NCBI GenBank assembly: GCA_048213135.1
Contig: PS015367.1
Span: 33,231 to 73,036, forward strand
Source: Reclinomonas americana ATCC 50394
Taxonomy: Eukaryota
Length of the DNA: 39,806 nt
Direction: 5' to 3'
The notes beneath the pieces were generated by a model. The model worked only from the letters and a program-made list of their open reading frames with translations, was not told where the DNA came from and searched no databases. Below are positions 9,997 to 39,806 of the stretch, in pieces. A program made the translations under genes and the position numbers. How positions within the stretch are numbered: the stretch's first letter is position 1; each line of letters begins with the position of its first letter.

Positions 9997-16283
<6,287 letters not shown>

Positions 16284-16549: not shown

Positions 16550-17140
16550 GTGTTTGACAGGAACCCGCTGGACCTGTGCTGCAAAAGGCAATCACTCTGC
16601 GTGATCGACTGCGTAACAAACTCGACTTGCGACAATGGTGTGTGACAGAGAGGCAAAGAGAGAGAGAGAGAGAGAGGAGGGAGGGAGAGGCAAAGAGAGA
16701 GAAGGGGGAGAGAGGAATGAGTGAGAGAGACAAGTGATGCATGCGAGGCAAAAGGTTGCACACACACACACACACACACTCTTTCTCTCTCTCTCTNNNN
16801 NNNNNNNNNNNNNNNNNNNNNNNNNNNNNNNNNNNNNNNNNNNNNNNNNNNNNNNNNNNNNNNNNNNNNNNNNNNNNNNNNNNNNNNNNNNNNNNNNNNN
16901 NNNNNNNNNNNNNNNNNNNNNNNNNNNNNNNNNNNNNNNNNNNNNNNNNNNNNNNNNNNNNNNNNNNNNNNNNNNNNNNNNNNNNNNNNNNNNNNNNNNN
17001 NNNNNNNNNNNNNNNNNNNNNNNNNNNNNNNNNNNNNNNNNNNNNNNNNNNNNNNNNNNNNNNNNNNNNNNNNNNNNNNNNNNNNNNNNNNNNNNNNNNN
17101 NNNNNNNNNNNNNNNNNNNNNNNNNNNNNNNNNNNNNNNN

Positions 17141-17197
<57 letters not shown>

Positions 17198-20100
17198 GTG
17201 TGTATGTGTGTGCGTGTTCTCACCATCTTATTTACTTGCTGCGACGTTGCGTTCTCTTCTTCTTCTTCTGCCTTCTTCTTCTTCCTCTGCATCCTTTCTC
17301 CCTCCTTGCGCTCACCCTTTCTCACCCTCTCTCTCTCCCTCCCTCCTCTCTCCTCTCTCTTTCTCCACAGGCCCGCATTCCTCGAGGTCTTTCGCGTTCT
17401 CCAATCCGAGCTGCAAGACCTGCAGGAGACCAACGTGGATCACCTGACGTTTCTCGCCGTGCACCCGATGAACTCGCATCCACCCGGGCACCCCAATGCG
17501 CAGCAGCCTGGGGGGCAGTTGGATAGAGGTGGGTGGAGAGGGGGAAGGAGGGAGAAGGGAGGGAGAAGGAGAAGGATGGTAGGGATAGTGTGTGGAAGGG
17601 AATAGGAGGGGAGGTAGAGAGATATACAGATAGATAGAGAGAGACAAAGAGACACAGAGTATCCTTCTCCCTCGCAAACTCTCTCTCTCTCTCTCTCCTC
17701 AGATTATTCTTCGTGCGCGCTGTCGTGTGATAGACGTGCTGTTGTGTGTGAGAGAGAAAGACAGTGAGTGTGTTAGAGAGAGAGAGACAAAGCAAGAGAA
17801 AGAGAGACTTGAAGAGAGACTGAGAGAGAGAGGGAGAGGGAGAGATATTGAGATGAAGAGCGAGAGAGAGTGAAATCACAAGTACAACTGAGCACGCTGA
17901 GAGTTAGAGAAGGACCCGAGAGGCAGAGAAAGTGTGAGGCAAGCAAACACAGTGGGGCAGACGGCGGAGGGAGAGTAAAGCAATGGGGAGGTGAAGTGTG
18001 CGCGGTTTGACTGAGTGAGCAAGAATCACGCGGGGTAAAACGAGAGGAAAAAGGGAGAACTGGACTGAGAAAACAGAGAAGAACACGTCTACGAGCCACG
18101 AAAGCTCAGAAACGGCCAGGCGACGAGTGCAGAGTGCCGGGAGAGAGAGAAGAGAGGGGAGAAGAGATGGAGAGGGAGAGAGGAGGAGGAGGAGGAGGAG
18201 GAGGAGAGAGAGAGAGAGTGAGATTGAGAATGAGGAATGGACAAGCAGAAGTGCAAGTGAGAGAGAGGGGTAGGTCGTTGAGCTTCGCCCAGACAATGAG
18301 ATGTGCAAGTGAGAATCCAGAAGGGAACGAAGAGGCAGCAATACTGAGTGCAAAGCAGTTGCAGTTGGGCGACGGTGATTTCCCATGCCTGTCTTCTCCG
18401 TCTCTGTTCTTGCCTTCTGCGCACTCTTCTGTTCACGGCTGTCGCTTCGTTCTTGCTCTATCGTCTCTCGCTCTCGCTTTCCCTTGCTCTCTCTGTTGCT
18501 CTCCCGGCCTCTCTTTCTCTCCCCTTCCCAATGTTTTCCACCTCTATTGCTCCTTATTCTTCTCCTCTTTTTTCTGTTTGTTCTGTGCTCTCGCTGCATG
18601 CTTCTCTCCCTGTCGCTCACCTGTCTCGCTCGGTTCTCGACCAACCTGTTTCTCTGTCTCCTTTCCCTCGGGCCTCTCTCTCTCTCTCTNNNNNNNNNNN
18701 NNNNNNNNNNNNNNNNNNNNNNNNNNNNNNNNNNNNNNNNNNNNNNNNNNNNNNNNNNNNNNNNNNNNNNNNNNNNNNNNNNNNNNNNNNNNNNNNNNNN
18801 NNNNNNNNNNNNNNNNNNNNNNNNNNNNNNNNNNNNNNNNNNNNNNNNNNNNNNNNNNNNNNNNNNNNNNNNNNNNNNNNNNNNNNNNNNNNNNNNNNNN
18901 NNNNNNNNNNNNNNNNNNNNNNNNNNNNNNNNNNNNNNNNNNNNNNNNNNNNNNNNNNNNNNNNNNNNNNNNNNNNNNNNNNNNNNNNNNNNNNNNNNNN
19001 NNNNNNNNNNNNNNNNNNNNNNNNNNNNNNNNNNNNNNNNNNNNNNNNNNNNNNNNNNNNNNNNNNNNNNNNNNNNNNNNNNNNNNNNNNNNNNNNNNNN
19101 NNNNNNNNNNNNNNNNNNNNNNNNNNNNNNNNNNNNNNNNNNNNNNNNNNNNNNNNNNNNNNNNNNNNNNNNNNNNNNNNNNNNNNNNNNNNNTCCCTCC
19201 TCTGCATCTCCTAGAGTGGTTCTGACACCCCACACTTGCTACTCCCTTCCCTTTTCCCTCACCCATTTTCTCCACCTTCCCGCAGTCCCCGAACTTCTCC
19301 TCTCCCGCCTCCTCCCCGAGATGGAGAAGGACATGGACGCCCTGCGCGACCGCGGCGCCACCCACCCCATGATGTCAGAGGTAAGCCTCCATGCCGGCGC
19401 AGAGTGGGCGTCATACTTTGCGGGTTGAGTTTACGGAGTTGGGGGTATAACTCAGTGGTAGAGTGTTCGCTTTGCATGCGAAAGGTCCGGCGTTCGAACC
19501 GCCGTACCTCCACATTCTTTTTTTATTTTTTATTTATTTTTTCTGAGTGTTCATTCAGCGCTTCTCTCTTGTTCCTCTCACTGTGGTAGGCCGAAAGTGG
19601 TGATTTGATTTTTCTGTGTCCGATTGTGGACCCAGTATTGTGATCAGTCCAATTTTCTGTGTCTTCCTCTGCCTTCACCGAGACGAGAGCCCACTTCCAT
19701 TCTCACTCTCCCCCGTGCGTTCATGCCGCACACTTTGCAGCGTCCGCCCTCCTCTCCACTTTCGTTCTCTTGCTTCCTTGGTGCATTCATTTTGTCGAGC
19801 TCTGACTCTTTCCTTCTCTCGCTCTCCTCGCGCATTCACTCTGGCCCTGATCCTCTCTCCATCTGCCCTCTCCCCTTCTCCACTTGCATTCATGTCTCGA
19901 GCTCTCTGCACATCTCCCCGCGTTTTCGACTCTCTTATCTCGCTCTCCGTCGGTGCGCTGTCTCTCCCCCTTGTCTCCTTCACAGCACTCTCTTGTTTCT
20001 TTCTCACGTCTCTCTCTCTCCCTTCCCCCTTTTCCCCCACCTCTCCCCTTCTCGCAGGACCGCCGCCACACCTTCTCCGAAAAATGCCGCCAACTCGAAA

Positions 20101-21255: not shown

Positions 21256-22252
21256 NNNNNNNNNNNNNNNNNNNNNNNNNNNNNNNNNNNNNNNNNNNNN
21301 NNNNNNNNNNNNNNNNNNNNNNNNNNNNNNNNNNNNNNNNNCCTTCCCCTGCATCATGCGTCGCTGCACCGCATGTTTCTCCTATCGCAGCGATCGCTCT
21401 TCTCCTTGTACCTGTCCCCGCTGTCTCCCTTCTCCTCCCCGCTCCCCTTCTCACTCCCTTTCCTGACTTTTCTTCATCACCAGCTGGTCGCGGCCGCGGT
21501 GCTACCAAGAAGACCAAGGCGGGTCGTGGAGGAGATGCGCTGCAGCCGCCGCCGCCGATGCCGCCGGCCATGGTGCCGGGCATGCCGCAAGTGGCGCCTC
21601 CAGTCATGCCGCCCGCTGGTGGGGGCATGCCGATGGTGCGTGGTGGGATGATTGTGTGAGGTTACAGTTCATGAGCATCATTTTTTCTCGCAGCAGCAGC
21701 AGGCTGGTCGAGGCAAGCGCATTCCACCGGCGGCTGCCGCGGTGCCGGCGCAGGATGCAGCGGCCTACAACTATATGGTGCACCAGAATCAGATGGTGAG
21801 CGTGCAGAGGGGAAAAAGGGAAAGGGTGGGGGAAGGAGAAGGGGAAAAGCAGAAGGAGATTCGGCGGTCTTTCTTCGGCCCACTGACTCTCCCTTCTCCC
21901 TCCGCAGAACGCCGGTTCCGCCGCCGCCGCCGCCACCGCTCCCGTTCCTCCCCCCGCCATGCCACCCGCCGGCTACGGCTACCCGCAACCAAACCCCTAC
22001 GGCAACACGTACGCCGTGGCGCCTGGCGCACCACCCGTCGGCGCCGCCCCTCCCGGCTACTATGGCATGCCCGCACAGGCTGTGCAGGGACGCGCCGTCA
22101 CCGCCGTCACCATGCCGCAGCACCCGCAGCCGCCGCCGCCACAACAGCAGCAGCCGCTTAATCAGCCACCACAGCAGCTGCCGCCGCCTCCGCCGCCACC
22201 GCCACCGCCTCCACCGGCAGCGGATTTCAATGTGGAGGATGTGTTCAGTTAA
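16448..22252 (+). CDS. MED8: Mediator of RNA polymerase II transcription subunit 8 with a long Pro/Gln-rich C-terminal extension
   Basis: Exons 16448-16453, 16561-16637, 17371-17528, 19286-19380, 20058-20708, 20772-20814, 21484-21635, 21694-21795 and 21908-22252 are phase-consistent. The protein has PVLQKAITLRDRL...WPAFLEVFRVLQSEL...FLAVHP...VPELLLSRLLPEME...LLETVLMGRG, matching the MED8 pattern as I recall it from plant MED8 (W..L..F, VVHP, LP.MLSSKLLPEME, L..V..G.G). N-gaps could hide exons. Confidence 0.8.
19441..19512 (+). tRNA. trnA-UGC: tRNA-Ala (anticodon UGC), located in a MED8 intron
   Basis: Full cloverleaf: acceptor stem GGGGGTA/TACCTCC with the Ala identity pair G3:U70 and discriminator A; D-stem ACTC/GAGT; anticodon arm TTCGC-TT TGC AT-GCGAA; T-arm CGGCG-TTCGAAC-CGCCG. 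No intron and no encoded CCA. Confidence 0.97.
19518..19542 (+). terminator. RNA polymerase III oligo(T) terminator of tRNA-Ala
   Basis: A T7 run starts 6 nt after the tRNA 3' end and is followed by further T runs. Confidence 0.8.
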
Positions 22253-23170: not shown

Positions 23171-26100
23171 CGTCGACGTCGACGACGTTCTCTCCCCCTC
23201 TTCTTCCTCTTCTTTGACTGCTTCTGCTGTTCGCGCTCTACGAAGCAACAGTGCAGTGTCGTATGGTTGCCCGGGGCTTCCTCCACGCTTTGTTGCTCGA
23301 CTGGAGCAGTTGGTGAAAGGTGAGAATGAGAGAGAGAGAATGAGAGAGAAAGAGTGTTAGCTCTCTCTGTCTCTCTGTTTGTTTGAGTGTCTATCAGTTG
23401 CTCTCTCTTCTCTTGCTTGTCTCTCTTTCTGTGTCTCTTTCTCTGTCATTCATTCTGCTTCTCATTGTGTTCTTCTCTCTATGTCTGTCTCTCTTTCTCT
23501 CTTACCTCACAGTCTTCCTCTCTGTCTCTGTCTCTCTCTTTCTTCCTGCTTCTATTTATGTGTCTTTTGGCCTCACCTTCCCCTTTTCTGTCTCTTTCTC
23601 TGCTGCTTTCAGTCTATCTGTCTCTGTCTCTCTCCTCCACTTTCTGTCTCTTACTCCTTCCCTCAGTCTTCTTCTTCTTTGAGTCTCACTGTCTTTGTCT
23701 CTCTTCCCCCTCCCTTTCTCTCTCTTCCCCCTTTTTCTCTCTCTCTCCTCCTCTTTCTTTCTCTTCCTCCTTCCATCAGNNNNNNNNNNNNNNNNNNNNT
23801 CTTCTTCTTCTTCTTCTTCTTCTTCTTGTTCTTCTTCTTCTCTCTCTTTCATCTCCCTCTATCAGTCTCCCTGCTTCCTTCCCTCTTCTGTCTCCTTCTT
23901 TCCTCTCCTCTCCTCCCTTCATTCTTCCTTTTCTTCTTCTTCTTCTTCTTCTCTCTTTCATCTCCCTCAATCAGTCTCCCCGCTTCCTGCCCTCTTCTGT
24001 CTCCTTCATTCACTCTTCCTTTCCTCTTCTGTCACCTCTCACATTTCCTTCCATCCCTCTCCCATGCTTCTCCTCCCTCTTCCCTCTCTCTCTCTCTCTT
24101 TCATCTCCCTCTATCAGTCTCCCTGCTTCCTTCCCTCTCACCCCTCACTCCCTCCCCTCGTCCCTTCCCTCTTTTATCGTCACCCTCTTCCTTCTCTTCC
24201 TTGTCTCTCTTTCCTTCCTTCTCAGTGATTCCGCGAAGTCGACTGCGACAAGATGCTGCGCACTTGAGCGAGGCGCTCCGGCTGCGAACAGTCTCCAAGG
24301 GAGTGAACAAGGAGACGGGCGAGTTGTTGACCAGTGTGGGGTGAGTAGATGAAGAGAGGGAGAGAAGGAGAAGAACTGAAAGAGAAGAGGAGGAAGAGAG
24401 GGTGGAGCGGAAGGAGGAAGAGAAGGACAAGGAGCAGAAGAAGGAGAAGAAGATGAAGGAGGAGGAGGAGGAGAAGAAGAAGAAGAAAACGAAGAAAGAT
24501 GAAGAAGAAGAACAAGAACAAAAAGAAGAAGATGAAGAGGAGGAGGAAGGAGGAGGAGAAGAAGAAGAAGAAGAAGAAGAAGGCGAGAAGGCTTGTCTTC
24601 TTCTTCTTCTCCTTCCTCCTGCTGCATCGCCCTCAGCCCCCTCTCCTCTCCCCCTTCCTCATTTCCTCCCTTCCCCTCATCCCGCGCAGCACCCAGGACC
24701 TTCAATCTCCCACCTCCTCTTCCTCCTCCTCCTCCTCCTCTTCCGCCGCACCATCCACGCAAGCCACCGCCGCCGCCAACAGCCGCGCACGTCGCCTGCG
24801 CTTTGACGAACGCGGTGCAACCGGCGTGCCACCCATTGTGTACGGGCAGCGCGAGGCCATGGCATACGCCGTGCATCGCATGCCGGGCGTGTACGCAGTG
24901 ATGGAGCGGGTGTTTCGCGAGGTCTGGTGTGGAGGGCGATGGACTGCGTGTGGTGCGTGGCACTGATTTTTGTTGGGGTGGCAGGTGGGCCATCGTCTCG
25001 GACCGTCGTTCGTGCCGCAATCGTATCTCGACATGGGCACTGGACCAGGCACGGCAATCTGGTTCGTCCTCTCCTCGTTCTCTTCTCCGTGCTATCCTCG
25101 TCTNNNNNNNNNNNNNNNNNNNNNNNNNNNNNNNNNNNNNNNNNNNNNNNNNNNNNNNNNNNNNNNNNNNNNNNNNNNNNNNNNNNNNNNNNNNNNNNNN
25201 NNNNNNNNNNNNNNNNNNNNNNNNNNNNNNNNNNNNNNNNNNNNNNNNNNNNNNNNNNNNNNNNNNNNNNNNNNNNNNNNNNNNNNNNNNNNNNNNNNNN
25301 NNNNNATACTTAGACCTCCTCAATTCTGGCCTTCTATGTGCGCTTACGTTCTCATTCTTTGTTACACTGCTTGCCTTCCAACTCGAAAGCTCAGTTTCTC
25401 ATCCCTCATTTCACGACATCCTCGCCATCCGCCTGCACCGCAAGTCGCCCTTTTCTTTTCCCTTTGCTGTTCCTCACTTTCCCTTTCCTTCTTACTTGCC
25501 GCAGCGCCGCTGTTGAACTCTGGCCGCAAGACAAGGCCCTTCGTGAGATCCTGGCCGTCGAGCCCTCCTCGGCCATGATGGACGTCGCCTCGACAATCCT
25601 CGCCGGTGCGACTCTCCTTGCTCTCGCCTCGCTCCCCTCTTCCATCTCTCACCCATCCTCCTTCGCAGACGTCCCCGGCATTGTGTGGCGCCGCTTCCTC
25701 AACGAGAGCCTCAGTCGCCAGTTTGATCTCGTCAGCTGCGCCTACGTTCTCAGCGAGCTCTACAGCGACAAGGTCCGCGCCTCCACCGTGCAGTCGTTGT
25801 GGGAGAAGACCGGCAACGCGTTGGTGTGTGAGAAGGAGAGGAGGGGAAAGGAGAGGAAGGGAGGGGAGATCGGGGGAGAGGAGAGGAGAAGAGCATGGAG
25901 AAGAGGAGAAGAGAAGAGAACAGGAGATGAGAGGAGAGGAGGGGAGAGGAGAAAGGAGAAGAGATAGGAAGAGAGGAGAAGAGAATGGAAGAAAAGAAAA
26001 AGAAGAGAAGAGAAGAGAGGAGAGAAGAGAACAAGAGAAGAAAAGTGAAGAGGAGAGAAAGGAGAGAAGAAGAGAAGAGAAGAGATGAAGAGGAGAAAGG

Positions 26101-27167
26101 AGAAGAGATGGGGAGAGAAGAGAACGGAAGAAGAGGAGAAGAAGAAAACGGAGGATAGGAGAGAAGCGAAGAGAGGAGAAGAGCATGGAGAAGAGGAGAA
26201 GAGGAGAGAAGAAAGTAGATCTGGCTGACTGTGCACGCGTCGCAGGTGATTGTCGAACCGGGCACGCCAGTGGGCTTCAAGCACATTAGAAATGCTCGCG
26301 ACACGCTGATTGCCAGCGGCGCGCAGATTATTGCCCCAGTTGCGTGGTGGGTGATGAGGAGAGGGAGAAAGAAAGAGGAACAATGTTCGCCCTTCTTCAG
26401 TTGCTTCTCATCTCTTCTGTTGAATGAGCGTTCTGAGCTTGTCTTCTTTTCTCTCTTCGCCCCTTCATTCCTACCAATCTTCGCATGCCTCAGTCGCCCC
26501 TCGTGACTCATTATCCGCTTCTCGCTTCCATTCATCGTCTCGCATGTTCTCAATTTGGCGCGTAACGTTGCTTCACACCGTCATTCCCTTCTCTTTCCTC
26601 CTCCTCCTCCCCCTCCTTCTCTCCTCCCTCTCCTCTCCTCCTTTCCCTCATCCTTTGCCCCCGCAGTGCCCCCACTCCTCCACCTGCCCGATGCCCGGCA
26701 ACTCCTGGTGCCACTTCCTGCAACGCGCACAACGCCCGGAGCTCCAGCGCATCTCCAAACAGCACGCCACACGCGGCTTTGAGGACGAGAAATTCTCCTA
26801 CATTGTCGCCGTTCGTTCGCCCACTTCTCCCGCTCCTACTGCCGCCGAGGAGGAGAAGGAGGAGGAACCCTCTCGAGTAGTGCGCGGTCCGCGACGTCGC
26901 GGCGGGCACACGCTGCTCGATTTGTGCACACCGCGCGGCACGCTGGTGACGAGTCACGTGGTCAGTCGTTCGCAGGGACTCGAATACCGCTTTGCGCGCA
27001 AGGCGAACTGGGGCGATCGATATCCGTTCGCCGTGCCCGACAAGGTGGTGGTCGAGGAGGAGGAGGTTGAGGGCGAAGGCGGCAGTGCTGTTGTTGTGGT
27101 GGATGAAGTAGAGGAGGACGAGGAGGAAAAGCCGATGCGCAGAAATCGACGACGAGGACGCGAATAA
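23043..27167 (+). CDS. RSM22: Mitochondrial small ribosomal subunit assembly factor Rsm22 / METTL17 (methyltransferase-like)
   Basis: Exons 23043-23319, 24226-24340, 24690-24921, 24985-25061, 25505-25605, 25669-25823, 26246-26338 and 26667-27167. Motifs: AMAYAVHRMPGVYAVMERVFRE, LDMGTGPGT, FDLVSCAYVLSEL, LVIVEPGTPVGF, IIAPCPHSSTCP, WCHF, EDEKFSY, RVVRGPRRRGGHTLLDLC, YRFARKANWGD. The N-terminus MLRLLARPLHRLTTTRTFATSRR is Arg-rich and acid-free, like a mitochondrial presequence. An in-frame upstream ATG exists at 22881. Confidence 0.93.
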
Positions 27168-31327: not shown

Positions 31328-34300
31328 GAACACGACGAGAGAGTGTGTAGTAGACGACGTACGTACGCGGACGGACGGACGGACGGAGGGACGGGTAGGT
31401 AGGACGAACGAACGAACGACGTAGTAGTAGTNNNNNNNNNNNNNNNNNNNNACGAGGAGAGAGAGAGAGAGAGAGAGAGAGAGGGACAAACACGCAGGAA
31501 AGCGTGTGATAGCACGTAACTGGCAGGCGCAGAGGGGCGAGTGAGCGAAACACACGGATAGATGGCGAGTTGCATAACACACTCACGGAGTAGGTAGGCA
31601 AGTTGACAGACAGCGGGGGAGAGACAGAGGGGAAAAAGTGCAGTGTATGCAAGCAAGTTGGTCTGGTGGTCTATCAGAACGAAGCGCAAGAGGCGGAGAA
31701 CTATGCACAGCAGTTGGTAGGAGAAGATGCAAAGGCATGGCAGTCTTGATAGATCGGCCATAAAGCGGGGCTTGCTGATTGTGTCGCTGGTAGTTGAGCA
31801 CAGCTCAAGCAATGCACAAGTACAGATAGGCATATTGGTTTCTGTGATAGTAAGTGCCCAGCTTGTTTTCAGTGGTCACAATCTTACGAGGCGAAGGGTC
31901 TTCTTGGCGTGTGTCATAGTTTGTGGGTATCATGTGAGGCACCAGTCGCAGTGACACGTGGTGGCAGTCGGCGGAGATCGTCGTTGTTCGCGCATGATCA
32001 GAGACGCAGTGGATCTTGCATCGTGAGCACAGAATTCCTAGTCGGCAATGTCACTGGCTGCATGAACACAAACGGGCCGTGTTTACACATGTGGCAAGTG
32101 TTCTTGCTTGCAAGCCTTGGTAGATGGTCCCATGAATGGAAGAGTGAGTAGGAGTTTGGCCAATTATCAATTTTCATTCGCAGCCAGCTTGAGAACTATA
32201 AGAGAGCTGGTCTTTGTTCCACCTCTCCGCTTTCGATCCCCTTCCCCCGAATCCACCCTCCTTCTCCTCATCTCGTCGTTTTCTGCAGCGCCGCCTGGAC
32301 TTCCTGCTCACCCACCTGGTGCCACTGGAATCGCGTGCACTCGGACTGGAGCTGCAAGCGGTGCGCGCCGCCTCGCAGAACCGTCTGGTGGCCGACGCCG
32401 TGATCAAGGCCGTGCGACCGAGTCTCGGTCCGCGCACACACTCGCCCTCGGCTCTCGCCCGTTTGCGGCTCTTCATGAACGCCGCAGAGGCCGCCCATCG
32501 TCCGCTGTGTTTAACCGTGGTGCCGCGACCGACGTCGGCGCAGTTGCGTGACAGTGACTGTCGTGAATGCCAGCATCGCTTGTTTCTCACCCACGAATGC
32601 AGGCGTGATATGCAAGAGGATCAGAGCTCGTGGAGCGTGCGCATGTTTGAGACGGTGGTCGCCGGGTACCCCTCCGTGTGTCACCCGCTGGAGGAGTTTC
32701 CGATGCCACCCATTGGCGACAGCACGGTTTGTGTGACTTAATGGTTGATGACGATTGACGCAAACTCATCTCTCTATTTTCTCTTCCACAGGACTACTTT
32801 GTGCAGCAGGGTCTCGATCGCACATCCTTCGTCATTGGCGATGAATTGGTATTCTTCTCGCCCTCGGCGTGGCGTATGTTGCAGGTCTGGTGTAGGAAGT
32901 GTACCTTGGCACTCTTCTCCGTAATATTCACTCTTCGTGCACAGGTATCACAACGGTCGGCAGTGGATTACATGCAGCAGTACCTCCGTTGCGCCGCACT
33001 CCTTGACACGCTTCTCTCGGCAAGTGGCTCACCACTTCCCCTCCCTCCCTCCCGCAGATGTCGTGCGGCTGGACGATGTCGTTGACCTGGCGAGTCGATA
33101 CGAGACAAAATTGCGGGCGCACTTCGATGTTGATCGGCACGAACCGGCCGAGCTGGCCGCCATGCTGTCGCTCTCCAAGTGGCTGTCGTCGCGGGATGCG
33201 AACTCGGATCACGATGGAGATGATGGGGATGATGGGGATGGCGAGGGGGAAGAGGAGGTTGACGGTGAGGGAGTGAGGGTGGGAGGGAAAGGGGTGAGAG
33301 GGTGATGGGAGAAGGGTGAGAGGGGAAGGGGGTGAGAAGGGAAGGGTGAATAGGGGAAGGGTGAGAGTGGAAAGAGGTGAGAGGGAAAGGGGTGAGGGGG
33401 AAGTGGGTGAGAGGGGAAGGGTGAGAGGAAGGGGTGAGGGTGATGGGGGAAGGAGTGAGAGGGGGAGGGAGAGAATGGGAGGGGTGAGAGGGAAAGGGGT
33501 GAGAGGGAAAGGGGTGAGGGGGAAGGGGGTGAGAGGGAAGGGGTGAGAATGGGAAGGGGGTGGGAGGGAAGAAGGGATGGGGGGAAGGGGGTGAGAAGGG
33601 AAGGGGGTGGGAGGGAAAGGGTGGGAGGGGAAGGGGGTGAGGAAGGAGTGGGTGAGAGGGAAGGGGGTGAAAAGGGAATGGGGTGAGAGGAAGGGAGAGA
33701 AAGGCATGATGAAAGAGAGGAAGACAGAGAAAGAGAATAGAGAGAAGAGAGAATGGGATACAAGAAAAGAGGGCAAGAAGAGAACGGGAAGGAGCGAAAA
33801 GAAATGAGAGGAAAACACACACCAGAAAGTGAGGAAGGAGAGAAGGCACGAGAATGAATGAAAGAGAGAGAGAGAGAGAGAAGAGAAAGGGAAGGAGCGA
33901 AAGGGAAGAGAGAGAAAGGAGAGGAAAAACACGCGCCAGAAAGAGAGGAAGGATAGAAGCCGCGAGAAAGAATGAAAGAAGCAGTGTGTGTGTCTGTGTT
34001 AGAGAGGAAGATTACACGGAACGAATACTTTGGAATGTGGGAGCAATGGCGATGGAAAGAACAGCGGTAGTGATGAGAGAACCAACAGGCAGTGAGACCC
34101 ACCTGGAAATGTGGTGTTTCGGAGTGGACAGAAGGCACTGAGTGCGTCACATCCGTCAATATAGAGCGCAATGCATGTGGCAAAAAAAAGCAGGTGTTCT
34201 GAGATGCAAGGGATCACAGTTGTCACTCGCATGATACACGACTCTCCTGTCTCTTTCTCTCCACACCTCTCCAACCTCTCTACCCTCATCCTCACACTCA

Positions 34301-37801: not shown

Positions 37802-38356
37802 AGGGGGGAGTCAGTCAGTGTATTCCTGAGTTTGTACAATCCATGCGTGTATAAAGGAGACCTGTGGACCCGCAGCGACAAGCAGCATTCACTCTACAGG
37901 ATGCTCTGCGCGACGATATAGCGACAACAACTCAATCGCCAATAAACCAGCAATGGCTGTCTTCTTGAGGCAGCAGCAGGTTTCTTGTACAAGCAGGACA
38001 TAAAACTTCACTGATCCGTACACAACAATGCAGTGATCGCCAACAAAGATCGTGCATTCTTCTAGAGGTGTGCCAAGGTAATGGTCTTGTCGCAATGTTG
38101 TGAATGACGCTTTGTTGTTGTTGTGTTATCGGTGTTGAGAAAAATCCCTATTCATGAAGAAGACTTTGTCAGCAATGACCACCAGAAGGCGTCCATCGAT
38201 CGCGTCAAGAAGAACAGTGGGGCAAGTATTGGGAAACTGTCTCCACACCACAACCATGACAGTAGCTTGCACGTCGGCTGTGCACCACACTCCTTTCACG
38301 AATCTTTCTCTCTCTCTCTCTCGTTTTCTCTCCCCGTCCTTTCCCCTTGTTGCCCT

Positions 38357-38631
38357 CATACAGGTGGTCAGTTCGCTTATTCATTTCATCACACGTCCAC
38401 GAGACAATTGAACAAAAAGCACGGGGGACCAGCAAGCAAAATAGGTGAAAGAGTGCACGCAGTGTCAAGAGTCACCTCCTTTCTCTCGTTCCCTTCTCCC
38501 TATCCCTCTCCCGTCATACAGGTGGTCAGTTTGCTTATTCATTTCATCACACGTCCATGAGACAACTTAACAAAAAGCACAGGCAAGCAGGGGACCAGCA
38601 AGCAAAAAAAAGGTGAAAGAGTGCACGCAGT
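38357..38631. repeat. Direct repeat (about 110 bp x 2) just downstream of the elongase stop codon
   Basis: catacaggtggtcagtt.gcttattcatttcatcacacgtcca.gagacaa.t.aacaaaaagcac...ggggaccagcaagcaaaa.aggtgaaagagtgcacgcagt at about 38357 and 38515. Confidence 0.88.
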
Positions 38632-38649
38632 CAGAACACCACCCGTCGC

Positions 38650-39731
38650 TCAGCGCTTGGGGGTGCTCTTCGCCTCGGCCGGCTTGGCCTTGGCGCTGGA
38701 CGGCGACGTTGTGACATTGTTGGTGGCGGCGGCGACCGCAGGCGTCGTGGTTGCCTTGGCGGCGGCGGCGCGCTTGGCACGGTCGGCGCGCTGATTGGCG
38801 ATCAGCAACTTGATGAAGAGGAAGAGGAAGATGAAGCCGATCGTCTGGCCGAACCAGAACGACAGCGTCTCGCCACCGCACTTCTGCAAATATGGGGAGA
38901 GAGTGAGACGCCATCAACTATCACAGCACAATAAGGATATCGCGACACGCACCACGCCAGTGTGGCGGTAGGTGTAGACAAAGTAGGGCCACGTCGACGA
39001 CAGGTCGAACACAAACTGCACAATCTGCAGCTTGGTCACCAGGTTGCGCCAGTCGGTGGGGACCTTGGCGGCCATGCGGAGGTAGTACCAGTACATGACC
39101 ACGTGGATGAGGCTCTGGAGGAGGGGGAAAGGGGGGAAAGGAGGGAAAGGAGGTGAGTGAAGGGAAAGGAGAAGGAGAAGGGGGCAAAGGGAAGGAGAAG
39201 GGTGAGAATAGGTAGAGAGAAAGACGAGACATCTGCAGGACAGAGGAAGGAGGAGATATGAGAGTTTGAGAAAATAAAAAGAACGGAAGAAGAAAGTGAG
39301 ACTGGGTGCCAGAAAACAAATAAGAGAGCGAACACGAGAGGATCAGAGATTTTGTAACAGGAAAGAGAAGACATCATAGAAAGAAACGAACGAGACAAGG
39401 CGGCAAGAAGACAGGAGAGAGAGATAACAAGGAAAAGGGCGAGTAACGGAGAAGATAGTCTCAGGACTACTATGGTACGACGGTCCATATGCCTCAGCAG
39501 TCCGTCAACGCAACACTGCGCAACAAACAAGAATGAGCACCGGAACACGCCAATACCTCTCACGCAAGCATGCATGCGCAACTTTGCCACCACGGCCACC
39601 CACTGGATGCTGAACTTGGTCTCCATGAAGGTCCAGAACAGGTACATGACCACAATGTGGTGGAACAGGTGGAGGAAGCTGATCTCGCGCTGGCGCAGCA
39701 CAATGATCACCGTGTCCAGCAGCTCGTAGAA
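38650..39731 (-). CDS. ELO: Very-long-chain fatty acid elongase (ELO / GNS1-SUR4 family), 5'-partial
   Basis: Exons 39731-39583, 39515 (1 nt), 39114-38953 and 38883-38650 give FYELLDTVIIVLR, SFLHLFHH (HxxHH), NSLIHVVMYWYY (NxxxHxxMYxYY), TKLQIVQF (TxxQxxQ) and a C-terminal ...KSTPKR. Confidence 0.95.
39515..39515 (-). other. Putative single-nucleotide exon (T) of the elongase gene
   Basis: The minus strand reads ttcttgtttgttgcgcag|T|gttgcgttg, flanked by a 67-nt intron (39582-39516) and a 400-nt intron (39514-39115). It completes codon AA|T (Asn) and restores the frame. Confidence 0.78.
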
Positions 39732-39806
39732 CTGTGGTACGGAAGTGAGAAGGGTGTTGCGTGAGAAGATCAGGGAGGGAGGGAGGGAGGGAGAGAGAGA
39801 GAGAGA

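Follow-up and report, generated by a model that had tools for sequence, protein, structure and literature searches.

A probable one-nucleotide exon in the asparagine codon of an ELO-family gene of Reclinomonas americana

The one-nucleotide exon of APC11 in Arabidopsis thaliana is reported to have been proven by cDNA sequencing together with constructs in which its base was altered (A>T, A>G and A>TT) or deleted (Guo & Liu 2015, PMC4674806). In the fungi, the P450 gene CYP621A of Fusarium is described as having such an exon, with an identical AGGGT in 20-24 orthologues and with 18 SRA reads (Nelson & Syed 2026, PMC12940212), and a long-read annotation of Coprinopsis cinerea is reported to hold 13 one-nucleotide exons in 13 genes (PMC12230235). 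Such exons are already known, then, from plants and fungi, and the case treated here would be a further member of the class. A preliminary description of this DNA had presented one-nucleotide exons as very rare, with APC11 as the described case, and the two fungal reports indicate that this overstated their rarity.

The DNA in question, which we call the window, is a stretch of 39,806 nt from Reclinomonas americana ATCC 50394 (contig PS015367.1, positions 33,231 to 73,036), and the end of it carries the 3' part, alone, of a minus-strand gene of the ELO family, the 5' part of which lies outside the window. In both APC11, as it has been described, and this gene, a frame-preserving base flanked by AG and GT sits inside an annotated single intron and is missed by gene predictors. 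The APC11 base is located 333 nt into a gap of 422 nt, whereas in the window gene the short intron would precede the long one (67 nt, then 400 nt), the base would complete the codon of a catalytic residue, and the case is read from DNA sequence where that of APC11 was proven on cDNA. The reasoning published for CYP621A is the same as ours in that a one-base mismatch of phase, an invariant spacing between motifs (PKG to PERF in CYP621A, HxxHH to NxxxH in the window gene) and a single AG-N-GT in an over-long intron all point to one base; in CYP621A, as reported, it stands second in a Gly codon, and in the window gene it would stand third in an Asn codon, where T or C is equally good. Coprinopsis has an intron-rich genome with short introns, and the recurrence of one-nucleotide exons in it raises the prior for the present case; it differs in being a fungal genome whose one-nucleotide exons are reported to have transcript support.

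Both strands of 38300-39806 were read and the joins checked by script, and all that the preliminary description had stated about the sequence itself was borne out on the minus strand, the strand of every ELO feature that follows. The 3' end of the preceding intron (39732-39806) is CT-rich and terminates in CCACAG. Exon A (39731-39583, 149 nt), the frame of which opens at 39731, encodes FYELLDT...FLHLFHH...QWVAVVA (FYELLDTVIIVLRQREISFLHLFHHIVVMYLFWTFMETKFSIQWVAVVA plus AA) and ends in phase 2 as GCA AA, that is, with two bases of an Asn codon. It is followed by the proposed intron 1 (39582-39516, 67 nt), which has a GTTGCG donor, a CGCAG acceptor and the 3' end TTCTTGTTTGTTGCGCAG, as well as a branch-like CTCAT at 39537-39533, with its A 18 nt from the 3' end, and then a T-rich tract. 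The proposed one-nucleotide exon is the T at 39515, which would complete the Asn codon as its third base (AA+T), and directly 3' of it there is a second GTTGCG (39514-39509). This would be the donor of the proposed intron 2 (39514-39115, 400 nt), which has a branch-like CTCAC at 39157-39153, at 39 from the 3' end, then a pure pyrimidine run of 38 nt, and the 3' end CTCCTCCAG at 39115; its CAG acceptor (39117-39115, within CTCCAG) is the first AG past that run. Exon B (39114-38953, 162 nt) is in phase 0, starts AGC CTC ATC CAC and encodes SLIHVVMYWYY...RHTGV. Intron 3 (38952-38884, 69 nt) reads GTGCGT...CTCAC...TTTGCAG, and the HMM alignment is unbroken across its join, HTGV/KCGG. The last coding exon (38883-38650) encodes KCGGETLSFWFGQ...STPKR and closes with the stop codon TGA at 38652-38650.

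Just 3' of that stop codon is a tandem duplication (38353-38463 and 38511-38631) with a unit of ~158-168 nt, in which blocks of 80, 26 and 18 nt are 89%, 96% and 100% identical, respectively. Two alternative 3' ends of the gene are conceivable in this duplicated region, and it may provide both.

That the gene is an ELO elongase, as had been proposed, is confirmed by matches of both central exons to PF01151 that are well above the cut-off of 27 bits: residues 1-48 of the 49 of exon A match profile positions 98-146 (E=9.9e-14, 51.9 bits), and residues 1-49 of exon B match positions 149-200 (E=1.5e-10, 41.5 bits). The first match ends at 146 and that of exon B begins with 149, so that a single profile position remains unmatched after the final Ala of exon A. 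Of the N-terminal KxxExxDT region of the seven-helix ELO protein the window shows YELLDT alone, and the HxxHH histidine box is present in exon A as HLFHH, aligned to the HVFHH of human ELOVL7. Comparison with the ELOVL7 structure (PDB 6Y7F) aligns both the HxxHH and the HxxMYxYY segments with the window gene, at a low overall sequence similarity (E=6.9e-5 for one exon and 0.68 for the other); exon A aligns to ELOVL7 residues 125-160, HxxHH included, and the second-motif His of exon B to His181, from which it follows that the missing residue, the one that the T would supply, corresponds to Asn177. In ELOVL7, Asn177 and His181 are reported to sit together in the active site, and EloA of Dictyostelium, mutated at the equivalent residues, is reported to be inactive (bioRxiv 10.1101/2020.11.11.378570).

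The constraint on this region is evident from a set of homologues gathered with exon A alone, a query free of any junction sequence. From 152 proteins examined (150 cluster representatives and two earlier matches), 111 carry both histidine motifs, and in 110 of these an Asn stands at -4 of the second His, which bears out the earlier statement that the NxxxH spacing is a property of ELO proteins and makes it near-universal; none of the 111 has an Asn at -3. The spacing from HxxHH to the second His is 28 in 104 of them, 29 in three, 30 in one and larger in three, and it is 27 in none. The nearest relatives have VANSLVH and IANSLVH at the junction, and inclusion of the T gives VVA-N-S-L-I-H. The closest homologues are environmental proteins with up to 61% identity. 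A search of the protein collection with either exon turned up no near-identical protein, as it gave two matches at 52-53% among five candidates and none that was significant among three further ones.

Metagenomes were scanned for an orthologous ELO locus, which yielded 12 distant loci, the best of them 58% identical over exon A and none orthologous; in six of the 12, NxxxH is encoded without an intron. One of the 12, a metagenomic ELO gene (L007, 3140-3270) that is 40% identical over exon A, has a phase-1 intron one base past the Asn codon (AAT T/GTGAGT...CAG/GC) and a second intron directly after H-V-F-M. Its first intron lies near the position found in the window gene and not at the same site, and introns thus cluster around the NxxxH motif in another lineage as well.

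How exons A and B can be joined was considered at some length. Between two exons that differ in phase by one there is a single base preceded by AG and followed by GT, T39515, and the 468-nt gap contains no other AG-N-G[TC] site. If 39583 is joined directly to 39114, the frame changes to K-A-S-S-T-W... and runs into a later stop, while inclusion of the T gives AA-T-AGC and N-S-L-I-H-V-V-M-Y-W-Y-Y, with a spacing of 28 from HxxHH to the His (protein VVANSLIHVVMYWYY). The next-AG join, also in frame, gives N-L-I-H with a spacing of 27 and is the only other in-frame join that keeps the Asn. A NAGNAG tandem acceptor was considered and rejected, as the AGs of CAGAG are two bases apart and the choices would differ in frame. 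Single-intron joins were tried with GT or GC donors from 39625 to 39540 and either acceptor AG, and 15 of them are in frame. Twelve microexon models of up to 45 nt are open, and all except the one-nucleotide model shift or lose the Asn; microexons of 4 and 6 nt that start from the same T, for instance, would move the Asn to -5 (N-V-S-L-I-H or N-V-A-L-I-H). When the models were scored with an HMM of 80 homologues, the join with the T reached 183.5 bits and was the best of 16 in-frame models, the next-AG join 175.9 bits (a small margin of 7.6 bits) and the direct join 73.0 bits; the best-scoring rival, at 176.2 bits, uses a GC donor and lacks the Asn. Both the scan of the gap and the in-frame models thus uphold T39515 as the sole candidate that restores the Asn and the spacing together, the full NxxxHxxMYxYY with Asn at -4 and a spacing of 28 being obtained, among the joins tried, with this T alone.

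Automatic intron calling by codon-usage scores was too noisy for a splice-site matrix, and the splice signals of the window were instead taken from a small set of reference introns anchored by homology by hand, which provided seven donors and eight acceptors. These are from two introns of an Rsm22-like gene (25824-26245 and 26339-26666, with the Pfam profile contiguous at 167/168 across the second), four introns of a minus-strand protein-kinase gene (11837-11773, 11662-11588, 11469-11386 and 11277-10444), and, in the ELO gene, intron 3 and the acceptor of the intron cut by the window end. Three of the donors are GTGAGT and two GTGTGT, with GTGCGT and GTTGCG once each, the last being the donor used at 26339 in the Rsm22-like gene; seven of the acceptors are CAG (three of them CGCAG) and the eighth is AAG, with no GAG among them. 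The short introns of the set measure 65, 69, 75 and 84 nt, in agreement with the earlier view that 67 nt is an ordinary short-intron length here, and most have CTNAY 16-20 nt from the 3' end. Both proposed introns are unremarkable for this genome in their splice signals and lengths, and GTTGCG is a minority yet real donor. The one AAG among the eight acceptors is the apparent acceptor of the kinase intron 11386-11469 (minus strand, GCGAAG/AAT). Long CT- or AG-rich low-complexity tracts occur in introns throughout the window, and the Rsm22-like exon has its best matches in bacterial and plant Rsm22/METTL17 proteins.

To estimate how often chance would give the arrangement, the gap was simulated 5000 times with a first-order Markov model. 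By itself AG-Y-GT is common, as it occurred in 1697 of the 5000 simulated gaps, and its window-wide rate corresponds to 0.75 expected per 468 nt. YAG-Y-GT with one of six donor-like tetramers was found in 28 of 5000 and AG-Y-GTTGCG, with the exact hexamer, in seven of 5000, figures that leave out the branch motif, the pyrimidine tract and the typical length. Window-wide there are five donor-like YAG-Y-GT sites in ~77 kb (both strands), three of which are within GT microsatellites.

Our best reading, to which we would assign a probability of roughly 0.7, is that T39515 is a constitutive one-nucleotide exon of an ELO-family 3-ketoacyl-CoA synthase gene, and we infer that the spliceosome retains this base. 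The comparative and the signal evidence together make such an exon well supported as a prediction. A single intron of 470 nt (39582-39113) that ends at the second AG of CAGAG would do without it, with AA/C CTC and N-L-I-H at the join, a protein one residue shorter, and an AG-T-GT that is coincidental. Such an intron preserves the frame and the Asn, scores 175.9 bits against the ELO HMM and is what a naive coding-potential intron finder chooses, but not one of the 111 homologues has the Asn at -3 or the spacing of 27 that it entails, and the loss of a residue between Asn177 and His181 on one helix should rotate one against the other. Its acceptor would be a GAG, a type seen in none of the eight reference acceptors, located 2 nt past a strong CAG that is itself the first AG after the 38-nt pyrimidine run, and it leaves unexplained a well-formed 67-nt intron followed by a T and a donor (28 of 5000 simulated gaps); we consider it quite improbable.

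Nor would a missing base, through a one-base assembly error at an exon edge or because this elongase copy is a pseudogene with a recent frameshift, be without a basis, as the window comes from a draft scaffold and includes six N runs of 20-504 nt. Those runs adjoin microsatellites, however, while the exon junctions are in complex sequence, and the lost base would need to coincide exactly with a splice junction, with the composite site in the gap then present by chance. The visible exons are moreover all open, the family match extends over 151 residues at 183.5 bits, and no frameshift is seen in the ELO, Rsm22-like, kinase and four ankyrin reading frames, so that we regard this explanation as unlikely. 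On paper there are also other splice patterns, since twelve microexon models are open and 15 single-intron models are in frame, among them the use of a GC donor, of a microexon of 4 or 6 nt from the same T, or of a deeper donor such as GTGAGA at 39563; each of these loses the Asn or alters the spacing, all score below the model with the T (at most 176.2 against 183.5 bits), and we think it very improbable that any of them is correct. In weighing these explanations, a one-base exon would be a rare event with solid precedent, whereas the N-L-I-H join and the missing base would each need a rare event of their own plus a chance arrangement of intron, T and donor.

If T39515 is such an exon, it would be flanked by two GT-AG introns of 67 and 400 nt, both with GTTGCG, a CTCAY branch-like motif, a pyrimidine tract and CAG, and removal of both would bring together GCA AA, T and AGC and thereby rebuild the Asn codon of the catalytic N-x-x-x-H-x-x-M-Y-x-Y-Y, in what would be the helix that also bears the second catalytic His. 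With a single base between the AG of intron 1 and the GT of intron 2, the complexes that recognize them should exclude each other, and splicing would be sequential; intron 1 is short, and its transcription is complete ~400 nt ahead of the intron 2 acceptor, which makes its removal first the simplest order. We take that order to be the likeliest, the reverse being less probable. Removal of intron 1 first, by intron definition, would produce GCA AAT/GTTGCG, the intronic part of which equals the original donor, and the regenerated AAT/GTTGCG could then serve intron 2, in effect a recursive splice that leaves one base behind. At a ratchet point of recursive splicing, AG and GT are juxtaposed around an exon of zero length, nothing is retained, and the donor is regenerated at the end of the upstream exon. 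The window site is similar in that a 3' splice site is beside a 5' splice site and a donor would be regenerated after the first step, and different in that one base would be left in the mRNA; as a ratchet-point site proper it was rejected, since the AG and the GT are separated by the T, which must stay for the frame to be kept.

Intron 1 contains an identical 8-mer, GTTGCGCA, at its start (39582-39575) and at its end before the final G (39524-39517), and there are three copies of GTTGCG within 70 nt compared with 24 in the whole window, both strands. The exact placement of the GTTGCGCA repeats is suggestive of duplication, but repeats of 8 nt are themselves commonplace here, with seven families of 8-9 nt in a 1.5-kb stretch. 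No consistent duplication model was derivable from the 8-mer and GTTGCG repeats at intron 1, a search for a second copy of intron 1 across the window found none, and the three GTTGCG copies could be the product of a local duplication without a role in splicing. It is a doubtful proposition, in our estimation, that the splicing is recursive with intron 1 obligatorily first and that the short intron was born by local duplication of the 5' splice site that headed an older intron. Were it true, the locus would offer a dated and mechanistically readable birth of an intron and, within a catalytic codon, of a one-base exon, perhaps one among several in a lineage without reported cases.

The one-base exon, if real, would itself be of interest as an independent nuclear example, in a gene family and an organism other than those of the plant and fungal cases, and its base would complete the codon of a residue located, according to the ELOVL7 structure, in the active site. 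Such an exon would mean that intron-defined splicing works without any exon body, and the 468-nt piece would be a compact one for studying the order in which two abutting introns are removed. Automatic annotation of this region would either frameshift the elongase or drop a residue from its catalytic helix.

Elsewhere in the window, N runs are found at 16797-17140, 18690-19193, 21256-21341, 23780-23799, 25104-25305 and 31432-31451, and these (20-504 nt) are mostly flanked by CT or other simple repeats. A tRNA-Ala gene (anticodon TGC, 19441-19513, plus strand) is the sole Rfam or ARAGORN match in the window. On the minus strand, at least four paralogous ankyrin-repeat genes are arrayed in tandem (12442-15424, the array probably extending to ~16300), each of which matches Ank_2 with an E value of ~1e-20 to 1e-21.
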